From: a virus
DNA: 64,000 nt
Reading direction: 5' to 3' (one strand)
Virus record (IMG/VR): IMGVR_UViG_3300045988_122441
Part shown: positions 43,619 through 64,000 of the stretch, piece by piece
Numbering within the stretch: the stretch's first letter is position 1
Layout of the letters: each line of letters opens with the position of its first letter
The notes under the pieces: model-generated
The model's database searches: none
What the model was told of the DNA's origin: nothing
The model's input: only the letters and a program-made list of their open reading frames with translations
Program-made: the position numbers and the translations under genes

Positions 43619-45136
43619 CTATCCCCAATCAGAACTCTGCTCGGCGGATTGCTCTCCACTATCCGTCAAATCCGTTTCATCTGACTGTGGTCTGCCGCCT
43701 TCATCGGTTGGAGCATTACTGTCCGTAGATGTGGTATTGCCACTCATCTGAGTAGAACTCTGAATTGGTCTAAACATATCTTGCAGACCCATAACCTCTG
43801 TTTCAAGGAAACTCATAGCATCAAGTTCTGCCTGTCCAAGTCCCTGAGACGCTGCATACATTGCAATCGTAGGAAGTCCGTATGAAGCAGCTTTGAGATA
43901 TGCATCACCCATTTCTTTTCGGTTGTACGGAGATACATCCAGAAAAGTGACTTTAAAATTCTTTCCATAGCTTTGAGACTGTATAAATCTGTTCACAGCG
44001 TCTTCAATGCTTCGTACAATGCCGAATGTAAGACTTTGGTCGGCTTTTATTGATAATGAAAGAGCATTAGCAGATGCCTTTTCATTATTAAACAGAAGCG
44101 AAGATACACCAGCTGATGTGAAAATATTCTGCTCTGCATCTGCTATTGTATTTGTATCGCCAGTATTAGACTTCTCGAAGCCGATCTTCGTAATAGGCAT
44201 CGGAGTAAGGATGGAACCAACTTCTTCAGGAAGGACAGAATCTAAGTTCTGCCAGAATTCTTTTGCCTTGTTCAAATCAATACCCCAGTTGCCATCTTTA
44301 TCCATAGGAAGAGCCATTACAAGCATTGCATAGTTTTCCAATGCTGTTTTGGTTAATTTCAACTGCTTATAATCCTCAAGGTCATACAATTCTCTTAATA
44401 TACCGATGAACGGTGGTAGAGAATACGCCAGGATATCATTATTGACCTTAATTGCAAATGAAGTTGGAGAATCCAATTCAAGCCATCTTGATGTACGCTG
44501 TTTCTGGTAAACAGCGTATTTTGTCTTAAATTCCTGCGGATAAAACTCCAATAAAGCACTATGAGAATCAAAGTATGAGAAGTCAAAGGATACATTCAAT
44601 ACATTTCCTTCGATTGTGGATATAGCACAATAATCACTAGGCAGCTGTTGGATAGTGATATTATCATTTGTCACCCACATAGTTCCGTAGAATGTATCCT
44701 CTCGTAAGCAGACGGTTAGGATTTTCGGGAACTGAGTTTTAATGCTCATCGCAGACAGAGCATTTAATACCTTACGATAGTTTCTATTTATCGTTTTGGC
44801 GTTGGTAGATTTAGGGTCAATCTTATACGGAGACACTACATATGCTAAATCAGACAGACTTGCAAAATACTGAATGATTCTTCTAAAATGAGAAGATGCG
44901 CCATATATATATGTAACAGCATTACGAATCTGCTTTTCATATGTATATGGGTTAGCAAGATATCCCTGTACATCTTCTTTAGAATACAAAGAGAATGTAG
45001 GAGTAGTAGTGTTATTGTTTAGGTCTCTAGTAATTAATCTGTTAAGAACAGCAAATTTGCTAGAAATACCTATCATGCCGGAAAAATCTTTGACACTAGA
45101 ATCTCCAACTTGCTTTTGTTCTGCCATACAATCCAT
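43619..45136 (-). CDS. portal protein
   Basis: 505 aa, immediately downstream of and overlapping the large terminase. Acidic C-terminal tail. Confidence 0.6.
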   Translation of the reverse strand: MDCMAEQKQVGDSSVKDFSGMIGISSKFAVLNRLITRDLNNNTTTPTFSLYSKEDVQGYLANPYTYEKQIRNAVTYIYGASSHFRRIIQYFASLSDLAYVVSPYKIDPKSTNAKTINRNYRKVLNALSAMSIKTQFPKILTVCLREDTFYGTMWVTNDNITIQQLPSDYCAISTIEGNVLNVSFDFSYFDSHSALLEFYPQEFKTKYAVYQKQRTSRWLELDSPTSFAIKVNNDILAYSLPPFIGILRELYDLEDYKQLKLTKTALENYAMLVMALPMDKDGNWGIDLNKAKEFWQNLDSVLPEEVGSILTPMPITKIGFEKSNTGDTNTIADAEQNIFTSAGVSSLLFNNEKASANALSLSIKADQSLTFGIVRSIEDAVNRFIQSQSYGKNFKVTFLDVSPYNRKEMGDAYLKAASYGLPTIAMYAASQGLGQAELDAMSFLETEVMGLQDMFRPIQSSTQMSGNTTSTDSNAPTDEGGRPQSDETDLTDSGEQSAEQSSDWG

Positions 45137-49424: not shown

Positions 49425-49449
49425 GTACCTCCTTTGTTATTATTTTGAA

Positions 49450-49532
49450 TGGGAAGTGATGGAGTCGAACCACCCGAGCCGTTAAGCAACTGATTTACAG
49501 TCAGCACCGCTACCTCTACGGGATAACTTCCC
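49450..49532 (-). tRNA. tRNA-Tyr(GUA): tRNA-Tyr (anticodon GUA), class II with a long variable arm
   Basis: Folded by hand. Acceptor GGGAAGU / ACUUCCC plus discriminator A. Anticodon stem GCUGA / UCAGU with loop CUGUAAA. 14-nt variable arm. T arm GGUGG-UUCGACU-CCAUC. CCA is not encoded. Confidence 0.85.
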
Positions 49533-49563
49533 AAATAAAAACCGGAGCATTTTACAGCTCCGG
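49533..49563 (-). terminator. rho-independent terminator
   Basis: CCGGAGC / GCTCCGG stem, followed on the minus strand by TTTTTATTT. Downstream of the phosphoesterase gene. Confidence 0.7.
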
Positions 49564-56094: not shown

Positions 56095-56165
56095 TTTAAA
56101 CCTCCTTTTTACGATTTCTTTTTGTGATTTTACAACCTAAAAGTTGTAACTCATTTCTTAATCCG

Positions 56166-56178
56166 TTGATTATCAATG
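56166..56178. promoter_or_regulatory. palindromic operator-like site TTGATTATCAATG (copy 1)
   Basis: Identical 13-mer repeated at 56474-56486, inside the divergent control region. Confidence 0.4.
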
Positions 56179-56277
56179 TCTTACATGGGCGTTCCTAACA
56201 ACTATAGAAAAACACCATCTTTGCTTTTGATATAAGGCTGCTTGATAGAGCGTTAAATACACAGCGGATTCAACATT

Positions 56278-56300
56278 GTAAATAATTTAATTAGCTTTAC
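56278..56300 (-). promoter_or_regulatory. copy 5 of the 23-nt motif
   Basis: Minus sense GTAAAGCTAATTAAATTATTTAC, in the divergent control region. Confidence 0.4.
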
Positions 56301-56382
56301 AATCCAAAAATAAAATCTGCAATAAATAAGCAGATCATTTATTTAGCATTATTATACCATTGTTTGCATGGTATGTCAATAA

Positions 56383-56405
56383 GTAAATAATTTAATTAGC
56401 ATGTA
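56383..56405 (-). promoter_or_regulatory. copy 6 of the 23-nt motif
   Basis: Minus sense TACATGCTAATTAAATTATTTAC, in the divergent control region. Confidence 0.4.
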
Positions 56406-56473
56406 AAATGCAAGTAATTATTTTATAGGATCTGGTTCGCTGGTTACCGTCTTTTCTTATTGGATAGGTAATA

Positions 56474-56486
56474 TTGATTATCAATG
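56474..56486. promoter_or_regulatory. palindromic operator-like site TTGATTATCAATG (copy 2)
   Basis: Same 13-mer as 56166-56178. ATTGATTATCAAT is a perfect 13-bp palindrome. Confidence 0.4.
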
Positions 56487-56678
56487 AAGCATAAGAAAAT
56501 CCAATAACCAGCGGTGAGCCTATGTGAAAACAAGGCTGATTTTGGGAGTTTAAGCTGTATGTGGGAGATGAAGCGACTTCCTTACAATAGCAACAGACAG
56601 CAAGCAAAAATACCATAACTACCGCCCTATGTGATATAGTGTGAAAAGGGAACATAGATATATAGAATTGCAAATAGT

Positions 56679-56698
56679 TTTTCCTAGTGGGTTACGGT
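56679..56698 (+). promoter_or_regulatory. isolated copy of the 20-nt core TTTTCCTAGTGGGTTACGGT
   Basis: Identical to the core of each 59-bp tandem repeat at 58058-58234. Sits 27 nt upstream of the -35 box at 56725. Confidence 0.5.
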
Positions 56699-56724
56699 AA
56701 AGAATGAAACGTTATAAAATTAGC

Positions 56725-56753
56725 TTGACATTTCTATATATTCATGTTATGTT
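56725..56753 (+). promoter_or_regulatory. sigma-A-type promoter for the rightward gene block
   Basis: TTGACA (56725-56730), 17-nt spacer, TATGTT (56748-56753) preceded by TG. About 80 nt upstream of ATG 56835. Confidence 0.5.
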
Positions 56754-56834
56754 ATAGTTCCAAGCTACAAATTTACAAACAATCAAACAACCACAACCGC
56801 AACAGCGGAACACAAGAAAAGGAGACAAAGCGAA

Positions 56835-57989
56835 ATGACAAAACAGCAGACAGCAACAACAACCACAACAACAGCGTTTGAAACATTACTTGTAAACTTC
56901 TGTAACGAATACAGAAAAGACCGCAACAGCACAACTTTCACAGAAGTAGCAACAGACCTTGCAACAGCTATTGCATACTCAGTAATTAGAAAATGTCTTG
57001 ACCCACAAGCGAAAAGCGGAAAAACTAGCAACAGCGGTTGCAACCCTCAGTTAGAAGAAGTTAAAAGAAGCATTTACAGAGACACGAACACATTAAAGAA
57101 CATTGATTACAGTTGTGAAAAAGCATTCACAACAGTGTACAACGAAGATGGAGACAGACAGACAAAGACGTTAGACAGTGACTATAGATACGCATACAAC
57201 AAACTTACACAACAGACACTAGGGGATGGGATAGACCTTGTAAACACTGCTATCGTTTCACTTCTGGACGAATGCACAAAAGTAGACACGACAACAGAAA
57301 ATTTTCTTGAAACGGTGTACACCGTCCGCAAACTTAAAAAGAAAGTTTGGATTAAAGTGTCTGACAGCGTGAACGGATGGGAAACGGTGGAAACTTCCCC
57401 GATTCGTGAAGTATACAAGGCAGTTCGCCGCGAGGTTGCAAATAACCGTTCTTTAAATATTGATCCGTCGAATGGTTACCTGTACTTGGAAGATTTAGCA
57501 AAGGACGAAGAAAGCAACGAAGAAACAACCGTATATAGAAGATTAAACAAGTATACAGATCTAGCCGGAAACGTTACAGACTTTAATGGGGCGGTCAAAT
57601 TTGAAACTGTAGACAGTGGAAGCGTTGCGGACTATGACAAGATGACAGAAGCGTTAGAACTGACAGCACGACAGGCACAAGTATTACAGTTACGCATGTC
57701 GGGCTATGGTTGCGTTGCAATCGGTACATATTTAGGCGTTAAAGAAGAAAGTGTTAGAAGCGTATTACAGACAATACAGAAGAAAGCGGTTGAAAAACTT
57801 TCTTTACCGTCTTACCTTGTCGAAGCAATGACAGCACCAACAGCACCAAAAAGCAAATTGACAGACGAAGACAAGAAAGCAATTAGAAAAATGATTGAAG
57901 ACGGTCACACAATGAAATTTGTAGCAGACTTTTACAACGTTTCTAAAATGACAATTAGTAGAATTGTAAACGGACGCAAAGACAGATAA
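56835..57989 (+). CDS. sigma-factor-like / HTH transcription regulator
   Basis: AAGGAG precedes the ATG. Region-4-like HTH (LTARQAQVLQLRMSGYGCVAIGTYLGVKEESVRSVLQTIQKKA) plus a second C-terminal HTH (FVADFYNVSKMTISRIVNG). Confidence 0.5.
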   Translation: MTKQQTATTTTTTAFETLLVNFCNEYRKDRNSTTFTEVATDLATAIAYSVIRKCLDPQAKSGKTSNSGCNPQLEEVKRSIYRDTNTLKNIDYSCEKAFTTVYNEDGDRQTKTLDSDYRYAYNKLTQQTLGDGIDLVNTAIVSLLDECTKVDTTTENFLETVYTVRKLKKKVWIKVSDSVNGWETVETSPIREVYKAVRREVANNRSLNIDPSNGYLYLEDLAKDEESNEETTVYRRLNKYTDLAGNVTDFNGAVKFETVDSGSVADYDKMTEALELTARQAQVLQLRMSGYGCVAIGTYLGVKEESVRSVLQTIQKKAVEKLSLPSYLVEAMTAPTAPKSKLTDEDKKAIRKMIEDGHTMKFVADFYNVSKMTISRIVNGRKDR

Positions 57990-58001
57990 AGCAACAGTGA
58001 A

Positions 58002-58033
58002 AAGGGCGGAACACAACCGCCCTTTTTCTTTTT
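58002..58033 (+). terminator. rho-independent terminator
   Basis: AAGGGCGG-aacacaa-CCGCCCTT, followed by TTTCTTTTT. Confidence 0.8.
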
Positions 58034-58057
58034 GGATACAGTCCAAAACGTAACCCA

Positions 58058-58234
58058 CACGACAGCCGACAACTTCACAGGGGTTTTCCTAGTGGGTTAC
58101 GGTTGACAGTGTGGAACACGACAGCCGACAACTTCACAGGGGTTTTCCTAGTGGGTTACGGTTGACAGTGTGGAACACGACAGCCGACAACTTCACAGGG
58201 GTTTTCCTAGTGGGTTACGGTTGACAGTGTGGAA
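58058..58234 (+). repeat. three perfect tandem copies of a 59-bp unit
   Basis: Unit CACGACAGCCGACAACTTCACAGGGGTTTTCCTAGTGGGTTACGGTTGACAGTGTGGAA at 58058, 58117 and 58176. An inverted CGTAACCCAC lies at 58049-58058. Confidence 0.9.
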
Positions 58235-58239
58235 CACAA

Positions 58240-59040
58240 ACAAAAGACAGAGCGAAAAGGCTGAGAACTCAGAGAGTTCGCCTATGTCAGATGTGCGGTA
58301 TATAAATATGATCTGACATAGTACATAAACCGCCATGATTAATAAGTTTCTAAAGAAGAGTCTCTCTATATTGAGGGGCTTTTCTTTATGGGCTTATGTC
58401 CATACGACTGTGAGGTCTACCTGCTCACAGGTAATAAGTGCATATACCGGTATCTTTCGGGGTATCGTGAGGGCTACCTGTGTGATAGGAAATAAGTGAA
58501 CTATACCAGTTGAAGCGTTCAATATGGGAAATCCGGCAAAAGGACGCTATACAAATAGTTTCGGTGAGCCGACCTACCGACGGCTTTAGAATATCGGCAA
58601 AACTCTGCGGTTATCGTGGATTCCTTTAACCGATTTGAGGGAGTACATCTGCTATCAGATGCGTCGATGGTGCATGAGAGTTAGGCTCATGGTTTCGAGA
58701 TAGTGAAAATCCCCATAGTTCGGCAGTTCGTTAGATGTGAAACTTTGCCGCATAATCCTGAGTGCGTCAACATGAGGGATAGCAGGAAAAATCTGTTGAG
58801 GTTTCCAATCGTAGTGGTATCAGTACCCGAGGGTACATCGGCTATGTTCCGAGGAATTAAATGCCGGACTATTGCGGGATTTCCGATGCAGACGGAGTAT
58901 AGCGAAATAAAACTGAATATTAAGCGGAGTGTGCAAACATTCCGATAAACCTATATTGAGCGTCCGAGATTGTGTATATCGCATGGTTTCGGGCGTTCTC
59001 TTATGGGCTTATCCCATGTAACAAAGAAAATAGAGAATCC
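58240..59040 (+). ncRNA. candidate large structured non-coding RNA region (family unassigned)
   Basis: About 800 nt with only one weak GTG-started ORF. Appears more GC-rich than neighbouring DNA (by eye, not counted). Many hairpins. Two long stems (58356-58383, 58960-58996) pair fully only in plus sense because they need G-U pairs. An internal duplicated ~60-nt module is present. Confidence 0.4.
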
Positions 59041-59056
59041 AGGAGGAAAATCATTA

Positions 59057-59799
59057 TGGCAGAAAGTAAGAAAACAAAAGCAGAACTTCGTGAGACTGCT
59101 GAGGCTCTGTGCAGAGAGTATAACGACAATATTCAGAATGGGAATTTCCAGGAAACTACCAGACTGAACGACGAAATCGAGCAGGCGGTAAATGAGTATA
59201 CATCTATCGCAAAAGAAGAGTGCTTCGAGGCTCTCAAGGCAACTGAAAATCCTATGCTTGAGGCTGTAAAACAGCTGACATTCCCGACAATCCGTGCAAG
59301 AGATACAAAGCAGGGTGACGAAAAGATTCCGGTTAGGGTAATTGAGGATATCGAGAGACCTATCGACCTGCTGAAATTACATAAGGCAACTGAGGGTGGT
59401 ATCGGCGCAGACAAGAACTGGGCTTATAAGGTGGAGAAGCTGAACTTCCTGCTGACTGCTCAGAAAGCAAAGGATCTGGGTATCGACCCGAAAGAGGTAA
59501 ATGACAGCTTTGCTATGGCTGACATTTCTAAGGAAATCGACATGGGTAAGAATCCGACATCAAAGACAAACCTGCTGAAAACTCTGAACGTAGTTATTCA
59601 GGCTATGATCGGAGAGGAATATAAGGCGGTATCTCATGACGTGAACTTCCTGATGTCCGTATTTTCACGGAAAAATCGTGCGGCTTTAACTGTATCATGT
59701 GCAAACCACAAATATATGCGCCAGTATTGTGCGGAAATTTGTCACCGTATCGTAATGGGCGAGACTTACAAGATCGAGTTCCGCAAGATTCGTAAGTAA
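59057..59799 (+). CDS. hypothetical protein
   Basis: AGGAGG at 59041-59046, then ATG 59057 (MAESKKTKAELRE..). The ORF-track start at 58972 lies inside the structured region and is unlikely. Confidence 0.55.
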
Positions 59800-62212: not shown

Positions 62213-62494
62213 TTGATTAAAGAGGATATTATAACACAGATTGCAGCCGACACAATGACACGAAAAGTTCTTGTAGAGGAAGTTGTCAATTCTTTCTTAG
62301 ATAATATCGAGAAAGCTATGGTTAATGGTGACAATGTAATCATTAGAGGATTTGGTACATTTCAGACGACGGAAAGAAAAGCGAAAGTCGGAAGGAATAT
62401 CAAGGCTGGTATTCCGGTAAGAATTCCTGCTCACATTGAGCCTGTGTTTAAGCCGAGCGAGGCACTGAAGAAAAAAGTATACAGAGAGGTATAG
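62213..62494 (+). CDS. HU/IHF-family DNA-binding protein
   Basis: TTG start. ..IIRGFGTFQTTERKAKVGRNIKAGIPVRIPAHIEPVFKPSEALKKKV is a classic HU signature. Confidence 0.8.
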   Translation: MIKEDIITQIAADTMTRKVLVEEVVNSFLDNIEKAMVNGDNVIIRGFGTFQTTERKAKVGRNIKAGIPVRIPAHIEPVFKPSEALKKKVYREV

Positions 62495-63949: not shown

Positions 63950-64000
63950 AACCACAACAAGCCGACGATCTTTTCGTCGGTATGCTTACCTATGCTCGGC
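63950..64000 (+). repeat. 51-bp element, copy 2 (runs into the window edge)
   Basis: Identical to 63108-63158. Again starts at the stop codon of the preceding gene. Confidence 0.85.

Follow-up and report, generated by a model that had tools for sequence, protein, structure and literature searches.

A large structured phage RNA centred on the RAGATH-16 motif, a putative 5′ leader of an uncharacterised gene followed by a hammerhead ribozyme

The IMG/VR virus record IMGVR_UViG_3300045988_122441 was analysed over a stretch of 64,000 nucleotides (nt), here called the window. At 58240-59040, between an array of tandem repeats and a gene for a protein of 247 amino acids (aa), this stretch has no credible protein gene, and a preliminary description, made from the letters alone, had proposed that it encodes a large structured RNA, whether of a class already known or of a new one. 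The locus raises the questions of whether such an RNA exists, to which class it belongs and how it relates to the gene that follows. The comparison with related phages and with all Rfam models supports the proposal: the stretch is a real, conserved and highly structured phage RNA on the plus strand, its centre is a member of the RAGATH-16 family, and the whole is most likely the 5′ leader of the downstream gene and not a free-standing RNA gene. Coordinates of the individual features are collected in Table 1.

The plus strand of 58320-59020 folds at -236.5 kcal/mol (z = -5.85, 20 shuffles), versus -172.7 kcal/mol (z = -2.03, 20 shuffles) for the minus strand. Stems of the region include G-U pairs, and the homologous intergenic regions of related phages display compensatory base changes in many helices, inside and well outside the RAGATH-16 motif. 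No open reading frame (ORF) is conserved: the 81-codon GTG frame (58703-58948), previously taken for the only one, is accompanied by a 54-aa ATG frame (58335-58499) and by others of 30-48 aa, and every frame is destroyed in six close relatives by indels of 1-2 nt, by a 56-nt deletion (58512-58566) or by an insertion of about 64 nt after 58929. Short protein genes, or an element acting as DNA (an origin, a packaging site or a protein-binding array) with incidental hairpins, would fit the presence of short ORFs, the tandem repeats and perfect palindrome at the left edge, and the many assemblies that break there; against this stand the lack of ORF conservation, the helices that stay paired through G-U and compensatory changes, the strong strand asymmetry of folding and the match to an Rfam covariance model. 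We regard this explanation as very improbable for the locus as a whole; it is largely refuted for 58340-59017, and a DNA-level role is plausible for 58057-58330 only. The extent first proposed needs the corresponding correction, in that its left 100 nt or so (58240-58340) look like promoter or operator DNA and the remainder is structured RNA. The higher GC content ascribed to the region is marginal (0.43-0.46, compared to 0.40-0.42 in the upstream gene and 0.43-0.46 in the downstream one).

The only above-threshold match of the whole window to any Rfam model is RAGATH-16 (RF03047), with 89.8 bits against a gathering score of 65.6 (E 2e-16 in the whole window, E 4e-18 in a scan of 57900-59150), and it is full-length, covering model positions 1-72 of 72. 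The alignment to the model contains the P1 hairpin, the P2 stem around hairpin P2a, and the conserved strand CGAGAUAGUGAAAAUCCC; two of the perfect stems noticed earlier, CATCTG/CAGATG and CATGAG/CTCATG, are P1 and P2a, respectively. Across 12 diverse sequences P2 and P2a pair at 100%, with changes on both sides in 7 of the 10 pairs. The genomic context is also that of the family, the vicinity of a gene associated with hammerhead or twister ribozymes: a hammerhead lies directly behind the adjacent gene. With all three testable defining features found, the centre of the RNA is a RAGATH-16 member.

A permissive Rfam scan of 57900-59150 (E <= 10) gave nothing credible beyond RAGATH-16 among the eight matches listed. 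The ROOL and GOLLD classes, mentioned in the preliminary description, are not among them, and neither are HEARO, OLE and raiA; none of the five appears in the covariance-model matches of the whole window at E <= 0.05 either. The RNA shares with these classes a large size, several domains, a frequent phage origin and an unknown function; unlike ROOL and GOLLD, it occupies a fixed leader position before one gene family, with a terminator-like hairpin just ahead of the ribosome-binding site. ROOL and GOLLD have been described as lying near tRNAs (PMC5737381). RAGATH-4 (RF03153) is likewise absent from the matches listed for 57900-59150 at E <= 10. RAGATH-16 is not mentioned in the literature searched, where the other RAGATH papers concern RAGATH-18. 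The main text of PMC5737381, the paper of 2017 from which the RAGATH motifs reportedly come, does not mention RAGATH. As far as can be told, RAGATH-16 and RAGATH-4 are catalogued as separate short motifs without known function.

Relatives of the locus were gathered by a DNA pattern taken from the conserved RAGATH-16 strand and by searches with the downstream protein, yielding more than 100 loci (L numbers below) on uncultivated phage contigs of 60-130 kb, plus a few contigs of metagenome-assembled genomes (MAGs) labelled Oscillospiraceae, Prevotella or Muribaculaceae. A blastn search of GenBank phages (INPHARED) with 58000-59060 found no match. The whole region is common to six relatives at 80-99% identity, and in L001 and L004 the RNA part (58338-58929) is 90-92% identical, versus about 81% at the start of the adjacent gene; in other loci blastn detects the RAGATH-16 core alone. 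Every contig showing both (more than 60) has this core 344-470 nt ahead of its homologue of the 247-aa gene, a linkage that holds down to 32% protein identity. An apparent double RAGATH-16 in a Prevotella MAG was rejected as a scaffold gap artefact.

Read from the sequences, the layout is constant: a gene with sigma-70 region 4 and helix-turn-helix (HTH) domains, a strong terminator, a tandem-repeat array, a variable 5′ part and RAGATH-16; then about 110 nt of conserved sequence with a proposed pseudoknot, followed by twin hairpins with C-YNAG-G loops and the single-stranded motif GAGUAnnGnGAA; and finally a small hairpin or the 131-nt RAGATH-4, a terminator-like hairpin of 24-39 base pairs (bp), the ribosome-binding site and the gene. 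The twin hairpins, the pseudoknot, the GAGUAnnGnGAA motif and the terminal hairpin recur in this order at leader identities of 43-58%. The core, 58646-59017, appears to represent a family of phage leader RNAs, in which RAGATH-16 would be one domain and, in other clades, RAGATH-4 another.

How far the RNA extends beyond the 72 nt of the Rfam model was examined on the structures downstream of RAGATH-16; MAFFT misaligns the middle part between two sequence types, and the helices there were tested on sub-alignments or read directly. With 12 leaders at 43-88% identity, RNAalifold yields P2 and P2a of RAGATH-16 together with two downstream hairpins, a structure in which 98% of the cells are paired and 11 of 17 pairs are changed on both sides; none of 500 shuffles reaches this pairing, and slid controls pair at 35-48%. 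The sequences directly following RAGATH-16 are of two types, and both fit one H-type pseudoknot formed by stems S1 and S2 and followed by helix S3, with 83.5% of the cells paired versus 34-46% when the partners are slid. S1 covaries (GC/AU) within the type of the window and S3 shows changes on both sides, while S2, invariant in the window's type, covaries in the other one (GUGC/GCAU, CGC/GCG, CUC/GAG, CAC/GUG). Farther on, a hairpin site is occupied by an unrelated stem in each clade, according to our own reading of the sequences (CAAAGU/ACUUUG in L008, CGCGA/UCGCG in L024, CGCAAA/UUUGCG in L003).

The GTACC/GGTAC stem picked out in the preliminary description is the first of the two covarying C-YNAG-G hairpins. 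H1 reads GUACC-CGAG-GGUAC (58823-36) and H2 reads GUUC-CGAG-GAAU (58846-57), the latter inside UCGGC 58838-42/GCCGG 58863-67. Of 21 diverse leaders, 19 have the two of them, with constant loops and widely varying stems (GUACC, AUCUC, CACC, CGCC, ACAUC, GUCCC and GUGCC for H1; GUUC, CCCAUC, GCUC, AAUC, UUACAUUC and CUUAUC for H2). The window has P1, P2, P2a, the conserved 3′ strand and the phage context, beside a hammerhead-carrying gene, in common with RAGATH-16 as catalogued; the difference is that in the window, and in all relatives examined, the motif forms part of a conserved structured RNA that measures at least 370 nt, whose pseudoknot, twin hairpins, conserved single-stranded motif and long terminal hairpin lie outside the model, and which in the window's clade has a further 300 nt on the 5′ side.

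The 3′ part of the RNA connects this motif with a second one. In nine loci of other clades the place of the window's small 18-nt hairpin is taken by the 131-nt RAGATH-4, which follows RAGATH-16 at a distance of about 175-250 nt and has the GAGUAnnGnGAA motif before it and the terminal hairpin of that leader behind it. In those clades, the conserved 3′ tail of RAGATH-4, GUUUAUCAUUGA, is the 5′ strand of the lower stem of the long terminal hairpin; therefore RAGATH-16, RAGATH-4 and the terminal hairpin belong to one RNA. In the window the lower stem is GAUAA.CCUAUA/UAUGGG.UUAUC. In 13 of 21 diverse leaders an automated search detected a counterpart of 24-39 pairs whose end is 14-43 nt ahead of the start codon; in five further ones the same hairpin was recognised by eye. 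The upper stems differ considerably in sequence among leaders, remaining G+C-rich and with a U-rich 3′ side next to them. A conserved loop sequence, GUUAUGAGA, occurs at the tip of the long hairpin or of the preceding one in L008, L024, L091 and L138, and is not found in the window.

The 3′ strand of the lower stem has a second possible partner, since AUGGG (59003-07) can pair with CCCAU (59013-17) to form a small alternative hairpin; the two structures are mutually exclusive because both use the same 3′ strand. A hairpin on this strand was found in 15 of 15 leaders tested, with clear re-use of the strand in 14 (the exception being L038) and with varying stems, such as UUAUAGGCU/AGCCUAUAA in L008, GUGAUAA/UUAUCAC in L028 and GAGCC/GGCUC in L140. 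Taken individually, the alternative hairpin is better than shuffles (fraction <= 0.05) in 8 of the 15.

What does an RNA in this position do? No sigma-70-like site was found on the plus strand from 58313 to the ATG by a scan that cannot recognise phage-specific promoters; therefore the gene would be transcribed through the RNA, unless such an unrecognisable promoter lies inside the hairpin. The long hairpin is only 42 nt away from the ATG, with no promoter-like site in between, which argues for a leader rather than a free-standing RNA gene, and the distance between the RNA and the start codon is nearly fixed in all relatives showing both. We therefore propose that the plus strand of about 58320-59050 is a long structured 5′ leader acting in cis, which would control or process the mRNA of the gene at 59056-59799; judging from the sequence comparisons, we give this proposal an even chance.

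The same observations can be read differently, as a stable, stand-alone RNA acting in trans, of the sort proposed for other large phage-borne RNAs and released by termination or cleavage at the long hairpin, with read-through into the gene being incidental; in the window's clade it would also be bounded by the upstream hairpin 1, and it might form a ribonucleoprotein (RNP) with the 247-aa protein. Its size (370-700 nt) and many domains would suit such a molecule, as would the terminator-like hairpin at its end, the two homologous hairpins that bracket about 560 nt in the window's clade, the better conservation of the RNA compared to neighbouring coding DNA and the strict coupling to one protein family of unknown fold; moreover, the near-invariant single-stranded CGAGAUAGUGAAAAUCCCC, the GAGUAnnGnGAA motif and the C-YNAG-G loops resemble tertiary or protein contacts and not a simple switch. 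However, the gene would depend on transcription through the RNA, as there is no promoter-like site between hairpin and gene; the spacing from the RNA to the start codon hardly varies, and in other clades the 3′ hairpin is the only one. On balance we consider a stand-alone RNA rather unlikely.

If the RNA is a cis-acting leader, transcription would start after the tandem repeats, perhaps at a weak promoter (58284-58312) and possibly with the sigma-like protein that the phage encodes upstream, and the folded leader would act on its own transcript. The long hairpin could be a weak terminator (attenuator) that is read through, or it could be cut, for example by RNase III, or both. The freed 3′ strand of its base would then refold with the next 5-9 nt, so that the mRNA would begin with a small hairpin, and a hammerhead cut would set the 3′ end, so that a discrete mRNA for the 247-aa protein is formed, its amount or stability being set by the leader. 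As for termination, the hairpins at 58352-58387 and 58944-59013 both have G+C-rich upper stems followed by UUUUCUUUAU and UUCUCUUAU, respectively, U-rich tracts that are paired in the extended stems; as for cleavage, the length of 24-39 pairs is compatible with an RNase III substrate, for which a double-stranded stem of some two helical turns is required, length alone being compared. Antitermination through pairing of the twin-hairpin loops (CCGAGG) with the 3′ arm of the terminator was also considered; it works in the window but fails in clades with other terminator stems, and was rejected.

Transcription-attenuation leaders (riboswitches, T-boxes) and the phage antitermination RNAs lambda nut and HK022 put are structured 5′ leader RNAs with a hairpin and a U-rich tail before the gene. 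The likeness is one of layout only, a structured leader, a hairpin and a strand with two alternative partners; unlike them, the RNA of the window lacks sequence or model similarity and is several times larger, its competing strand is the base of the hairpin and not the terminator stem, and one terminator-like hairpin precedes the core. The RNase III hairpins of the T7 early region and of Bacillus phage SP82 are long imperfect intergenic hairpins between segments of transcription units; by analogy, the hairpin of 24-39 bp is so placed that, if it were cut, the newly made end of the mRNA would carry a small hairpin.

Several observations weigh against the proposal of a cis-acting leader. For one, the 5′ end is a predicted one, and so are termination, read-through and cleavage. 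A consensus terminator scan listed neither hairpin, which may not terminate at all, and in relatives the U-tract following the long hairpin is often interrupted (e.g. UUCGCUUGAG). Because hairpin 1 precedes RAGATH-16, the conserved core cannot assist the polymerase in passing it. In 7 of the 15 leaders the alternative hairpin, taken individually, is no better than shuffles. No ligand, protein partner or structure sequestering the ribosome-binding site was identified, and this site looks free in the minimum-energy fold. Upstream of certain gene homologues RAGATH-16 is not seen; most of these are at 36-43% identity, but a group of five at 58-60% also belongs here. Finally, conserved phage synteny can also hold an independent RNA gene beside a protein gene.

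The gene is also followed by an RNA element, a hammerhead of type I beginning directly after the stop codon. Its stem I (59811-16/59862-67), CUGAUGA (59817-23), stem II (59824-37) and GAAA (59838-41), then stem III and GUC, make up a canonical catalytic core with all three stems canonical; the match to Hammerhead_HH9 (31.6 bits, E 5.6e-4) is under the gathering score. From this sequence, cleavage is predicted after C59861. Hammerhead cores occur within 200 nt after the gene in 27 of 79 related loci, and twister-P1 or HDV-like ribozymes in others. In nine related loci, the 1-3 kb past the gene contain hammerhead, twister-P1, RAGATH-36 and tRNAs; the twister-P1 ribozymes number one to three and are mostly just under the gathering score, and L132 has HDV-like ribozymes instead. 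The window ends at 64000 without showing this downstream RNA cluster.

That self-cleaving ribozymes of three unrelated classes follow the gene in different clades suggests that RNA cleavage around the gene is under selection, and it is conceivable that the leader is itself an unrecognised self-cleaving or catalytic RNA, which makes the 5′ end of the mRNA as a counterpart of the 3′ ribozyme. The RAGATH motifs were reportedly collected as candidate new ribozymes because of this gene context; those keeping the RAGATH name are not known to cleave. However, no ribozyme family, whether hammerhead, twister, twister-sister, pistol, hatchet, HDV-like or another, is among the matches listed for 57900-59150 at E <= 10 (the hammerhead lies outside), and 400 nt far exceed the size of small self-cleaving RNAs; a catalytic role of the leader is hence improbable.

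Relative to Rfam, two aspects are new: how far the RNA extends, and that RAGATH-16 and RAGATH-4 are linked with the terminal hairpin, with the gene and with the ribozyme; the RNA is not a new class, and two orphan motifs and their ribozyme context become one defined cassette. A 2019 review stated that the cause of the gene associations shared by twister and hammerhead ribozymes is unknown (PMC6765202). With the gene bracketed by the long hairpin of the leader and a self-cleaving ribozyme, the locus offers a compact cassette of about 1.6 kb in which that question can be approached. Tentatively, RAGATH-16, RAGATH-4, the pseudoknot, the twin C-YNAG-G hairpins, the GAGUAnnGnGAA motif and the switchable hairpin may form one RNA of 400-700 nt that brackets the gene together with the ribozyme, as an undescribed processing or regulatory cassette, a possibility that we hold to be open to considerable doubt. 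If true, the large RNA might be a novel riboregulator, might join the 247-aa protein in an RNP or might be a catalytic RNA of a new kind, and the cassette could explain the gene neighbours common to hammerhead and twister ribozymes. The window and its relatives show the two orphan motifs as portions of a far larger conserved RNA, a probable leader, that is linked to a single uncharacterised family of phage genes, and alignments to this larger RNA should serve better than the 72-nt model when such RNAs are to be found and classified.

Table 1. Features of the RNA locus and of its flanks, in window coordinates
Feature	Position	Strand	Basis or remarks
Three exact tandem repeat copies, 59-nt spacing	58057-58237		Between the upstream gene's terminator (57999-58027) and the RNA
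Perfect 11-bp palindrome over a weak sigma-70-like promoter, ATGTCA-17-TATGAT (58284-58312)	58282-58321	+	9/12 matches
Terminator-like hairpin 1 (15-bp stem 58352-58366/58373-58387, U-rich 3′ arm) and small hairpin UGGGC-UUAU-GUCCA (58389-58402)	58352-58402	+	
Two tandem modules of about 57 nt, (G)UGAGGNCUACCUG...AGGNAAUAAGUG...UAUACC	58408-58510	+	Window's own clade only
Dispensable stem-loop domain AGCGU.../...ACGCU	58512-58566	+	Clean 56-nt deletion in L007, L002, L171, L179 and L190
Two helices: GCCGA 58568-72 (or ACCGA 58576-80)/UCGGC 58594-98; CGGUUA 58608-13/UAACCG 58627-32	58568-58632	+	Compensatory changes
RAGATH-16 motif: P1 hairpin, P2/P2a, near-invariant strand CGAGAUAGUGAAAAUCCCC	58646-58718	+	Rfam covariance model; covariation in P2 and P2a
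Proposed H-type pseudoknot (S1 58722-25/58746-49, S2 58735-38/58750-53) and helix S3 (58755-59/58776-80)	58721-58780	+	
Variable hairpin GGAAA.../...UUUCC	58785-58806	+	Own reading of the sequences, no statistics
Twin hairpins with C-YNAG-G loops	58823-58867	+	Covariation, pairing counts
Conserved single-stranded motif GAGUAUAGCGAA (consensus GAGUAnnGnGAA)	58895-58906	+	
Small hairpin GGAGUGU-GCAA-ACAUUCC	58926-58943	+	Compensatory in L002: GGAAUGC-GUAA-GCAUUCU
Long terminator-like hairpin of 29 pairs; upper stem rich in G+C, UUCUCUUAU after it	58944-59013	+	Ends 42 nt before the start codon
Alternative hairpin AUGGG-CUUAU-CCCAU	59003-59017	+	AUGGG 59003-07 with CCCAU 59013-17
Ribosome-binding site GGAGG	59042-59046	+	Inside the 42 nt between long hairpin and ATG
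Gene for a 247-aa protein, no known function	59056-59799	+	Homologues with RAGATH-16 leader upstream (synteny)
Type-I hammerhead ribozyme, directly after the stop codon	59800-59884	+	Core and three stems read from the sequence

Upstream of RAGATH-16 the window differs from many of its relatives, the distance from the repeats to the motif being about 400 nt versus about 100 nt in L015; the extra part corresponds to 58338-58640 (about 300 nt). It begins with hairpin 1, which is a shortened duplicate of the long terminal hairpin's 3′ half, paired with an unrelated new 5′ arm. The sequences CTATATTGAG and (C/T)TTATGGGCTTAT are common to both hairpins and occur exactly only at these two sites in the 64 kb; a more general role of the flanking repeat as a promoter or terminator signal was discarded, CTATATTGAG and TTATGGGCUUAU being exact only at the two hairpins. 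A compensatory change of A-U to C-G in L170 suggests that selection acts on hairpin 1 itself, and not merely on its duplicated sequence.

Hairpin 1 is followed by a duplicated module, already recognised in the preliminary description, whose copies (58410-58423/58467-58480 and 58429-58440/58487-58498) are spaced by 57-58 nt. The inner stem CCUG/CAGG proposed for module 1 is not confirmed, being broken in relatives (CCUA...CAGG); a 7-bp stem, CUGUGAG/CUCACAG, which tolerates the change found in relatives as U-G, is favoured. For module 2 the evidence is mixed. The 18 human-gut metagenome contigs with the 57-nt module belong to the window's clade, and those with a BLAST match are 80-99% identical to the window; three hits outside the clade were dismissed as chance, in unrelated DNA without a nearby RAGATH-16 core. 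On this distribution, the module is a clade-specific add-on, outside the widely conserved core.

Within the stem-loop domain that follows, GGAAAUCC (58526-58533) can pair with GGAUUUCC (58877-58884), giving a plausible long-range helix; it cannot be essential, however, because its 5′ partner is deleted in some relatives. The two helices next to RAGATH-16 have the versions GCUGA/UCAGC and CGGUCA/UGACCG in relatives.

At the left edge of the region, the perfect inverted repeat of 11 nt reported earlier (58282-58292/58311-58321) exists, and in L001 and L004 its place is held by another palindrome, with TATAAAT behind it; this segment is probably promoter or operator DNA, with a putative transcription start near 58320. 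Every related phage has its own array in the place of the tandem repeats, differing in unit and copy number (1-7), with a shared core similar to CCCCUUUGCGGUUA.GGGUG. Of 80 related contigs, about 20 terminate in the array or immediately next to it, which suggests that assemblies break at the repeats. The array could be a set of promoter or activator sites for the upstream sigma-like protein.

This upstream protein, of 384 aa (56835-57989, plus strand), has a domain similar to sigma-70 region 4 or to extracytoplasmic function (ECF) sigma factors, together with extra HTH domains; its gene, ended by a strong terminator (57999-58027), is directly upstream of the repeats and the RNA in relatives too. 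The unit formed by RNA and gene comes after this terminator and is without a good host-type promoter, which fits its transcription by a factor of the phage itself; on its domain content and position, the 384-aa protein is a candidate phage sigma factor for the unit. Farther upstream, 56100-56830 is an AT-rich divergent intergenic region (GC 0.30-0.35), with a minimum of cumulative GC skew near 56200 and flanked by perfect or near-perfect sigma-A promoters (56379-56351, minus strand; 56725-56753, plus strand); it is probably an early-promoter region, an origin or both, and the sigma-A promoters would thus make the sigma-like gene an early one.

The 247-aa protein has 808 homologues; it belongs to no Pfam, PHROG or NCBIfam family and has no sequence match in the PDB. 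Its AlphaFold model is confident (predicted local distance difference test score 85.4) and comprises an N-terminal helical hairpin, a beta-hairpin and a helical domain. Foldseek retrieved no PDB fold with this model and only two uncharacterised Siphoviridae proteins in BFVD; the model may thus represent a new fold.

Elsewhere in the window, a tRNA-Tyr (GTA) gene is located at 49449-49533 on the minus strand, and 44412-44522 (plus strand) matches the Bacillus small RNA ncr952 with 32.9 bits versus a gathering score of 100 (E 0.0015), probably by chance. The rightward gene cluster to which the 247-aa gene belongs also includes, at 62213-62494 (plus strand), a gene for a DNA-binding protein of the HU/IHF type (Pfam Bac_DNA_binding, E 1e-25).

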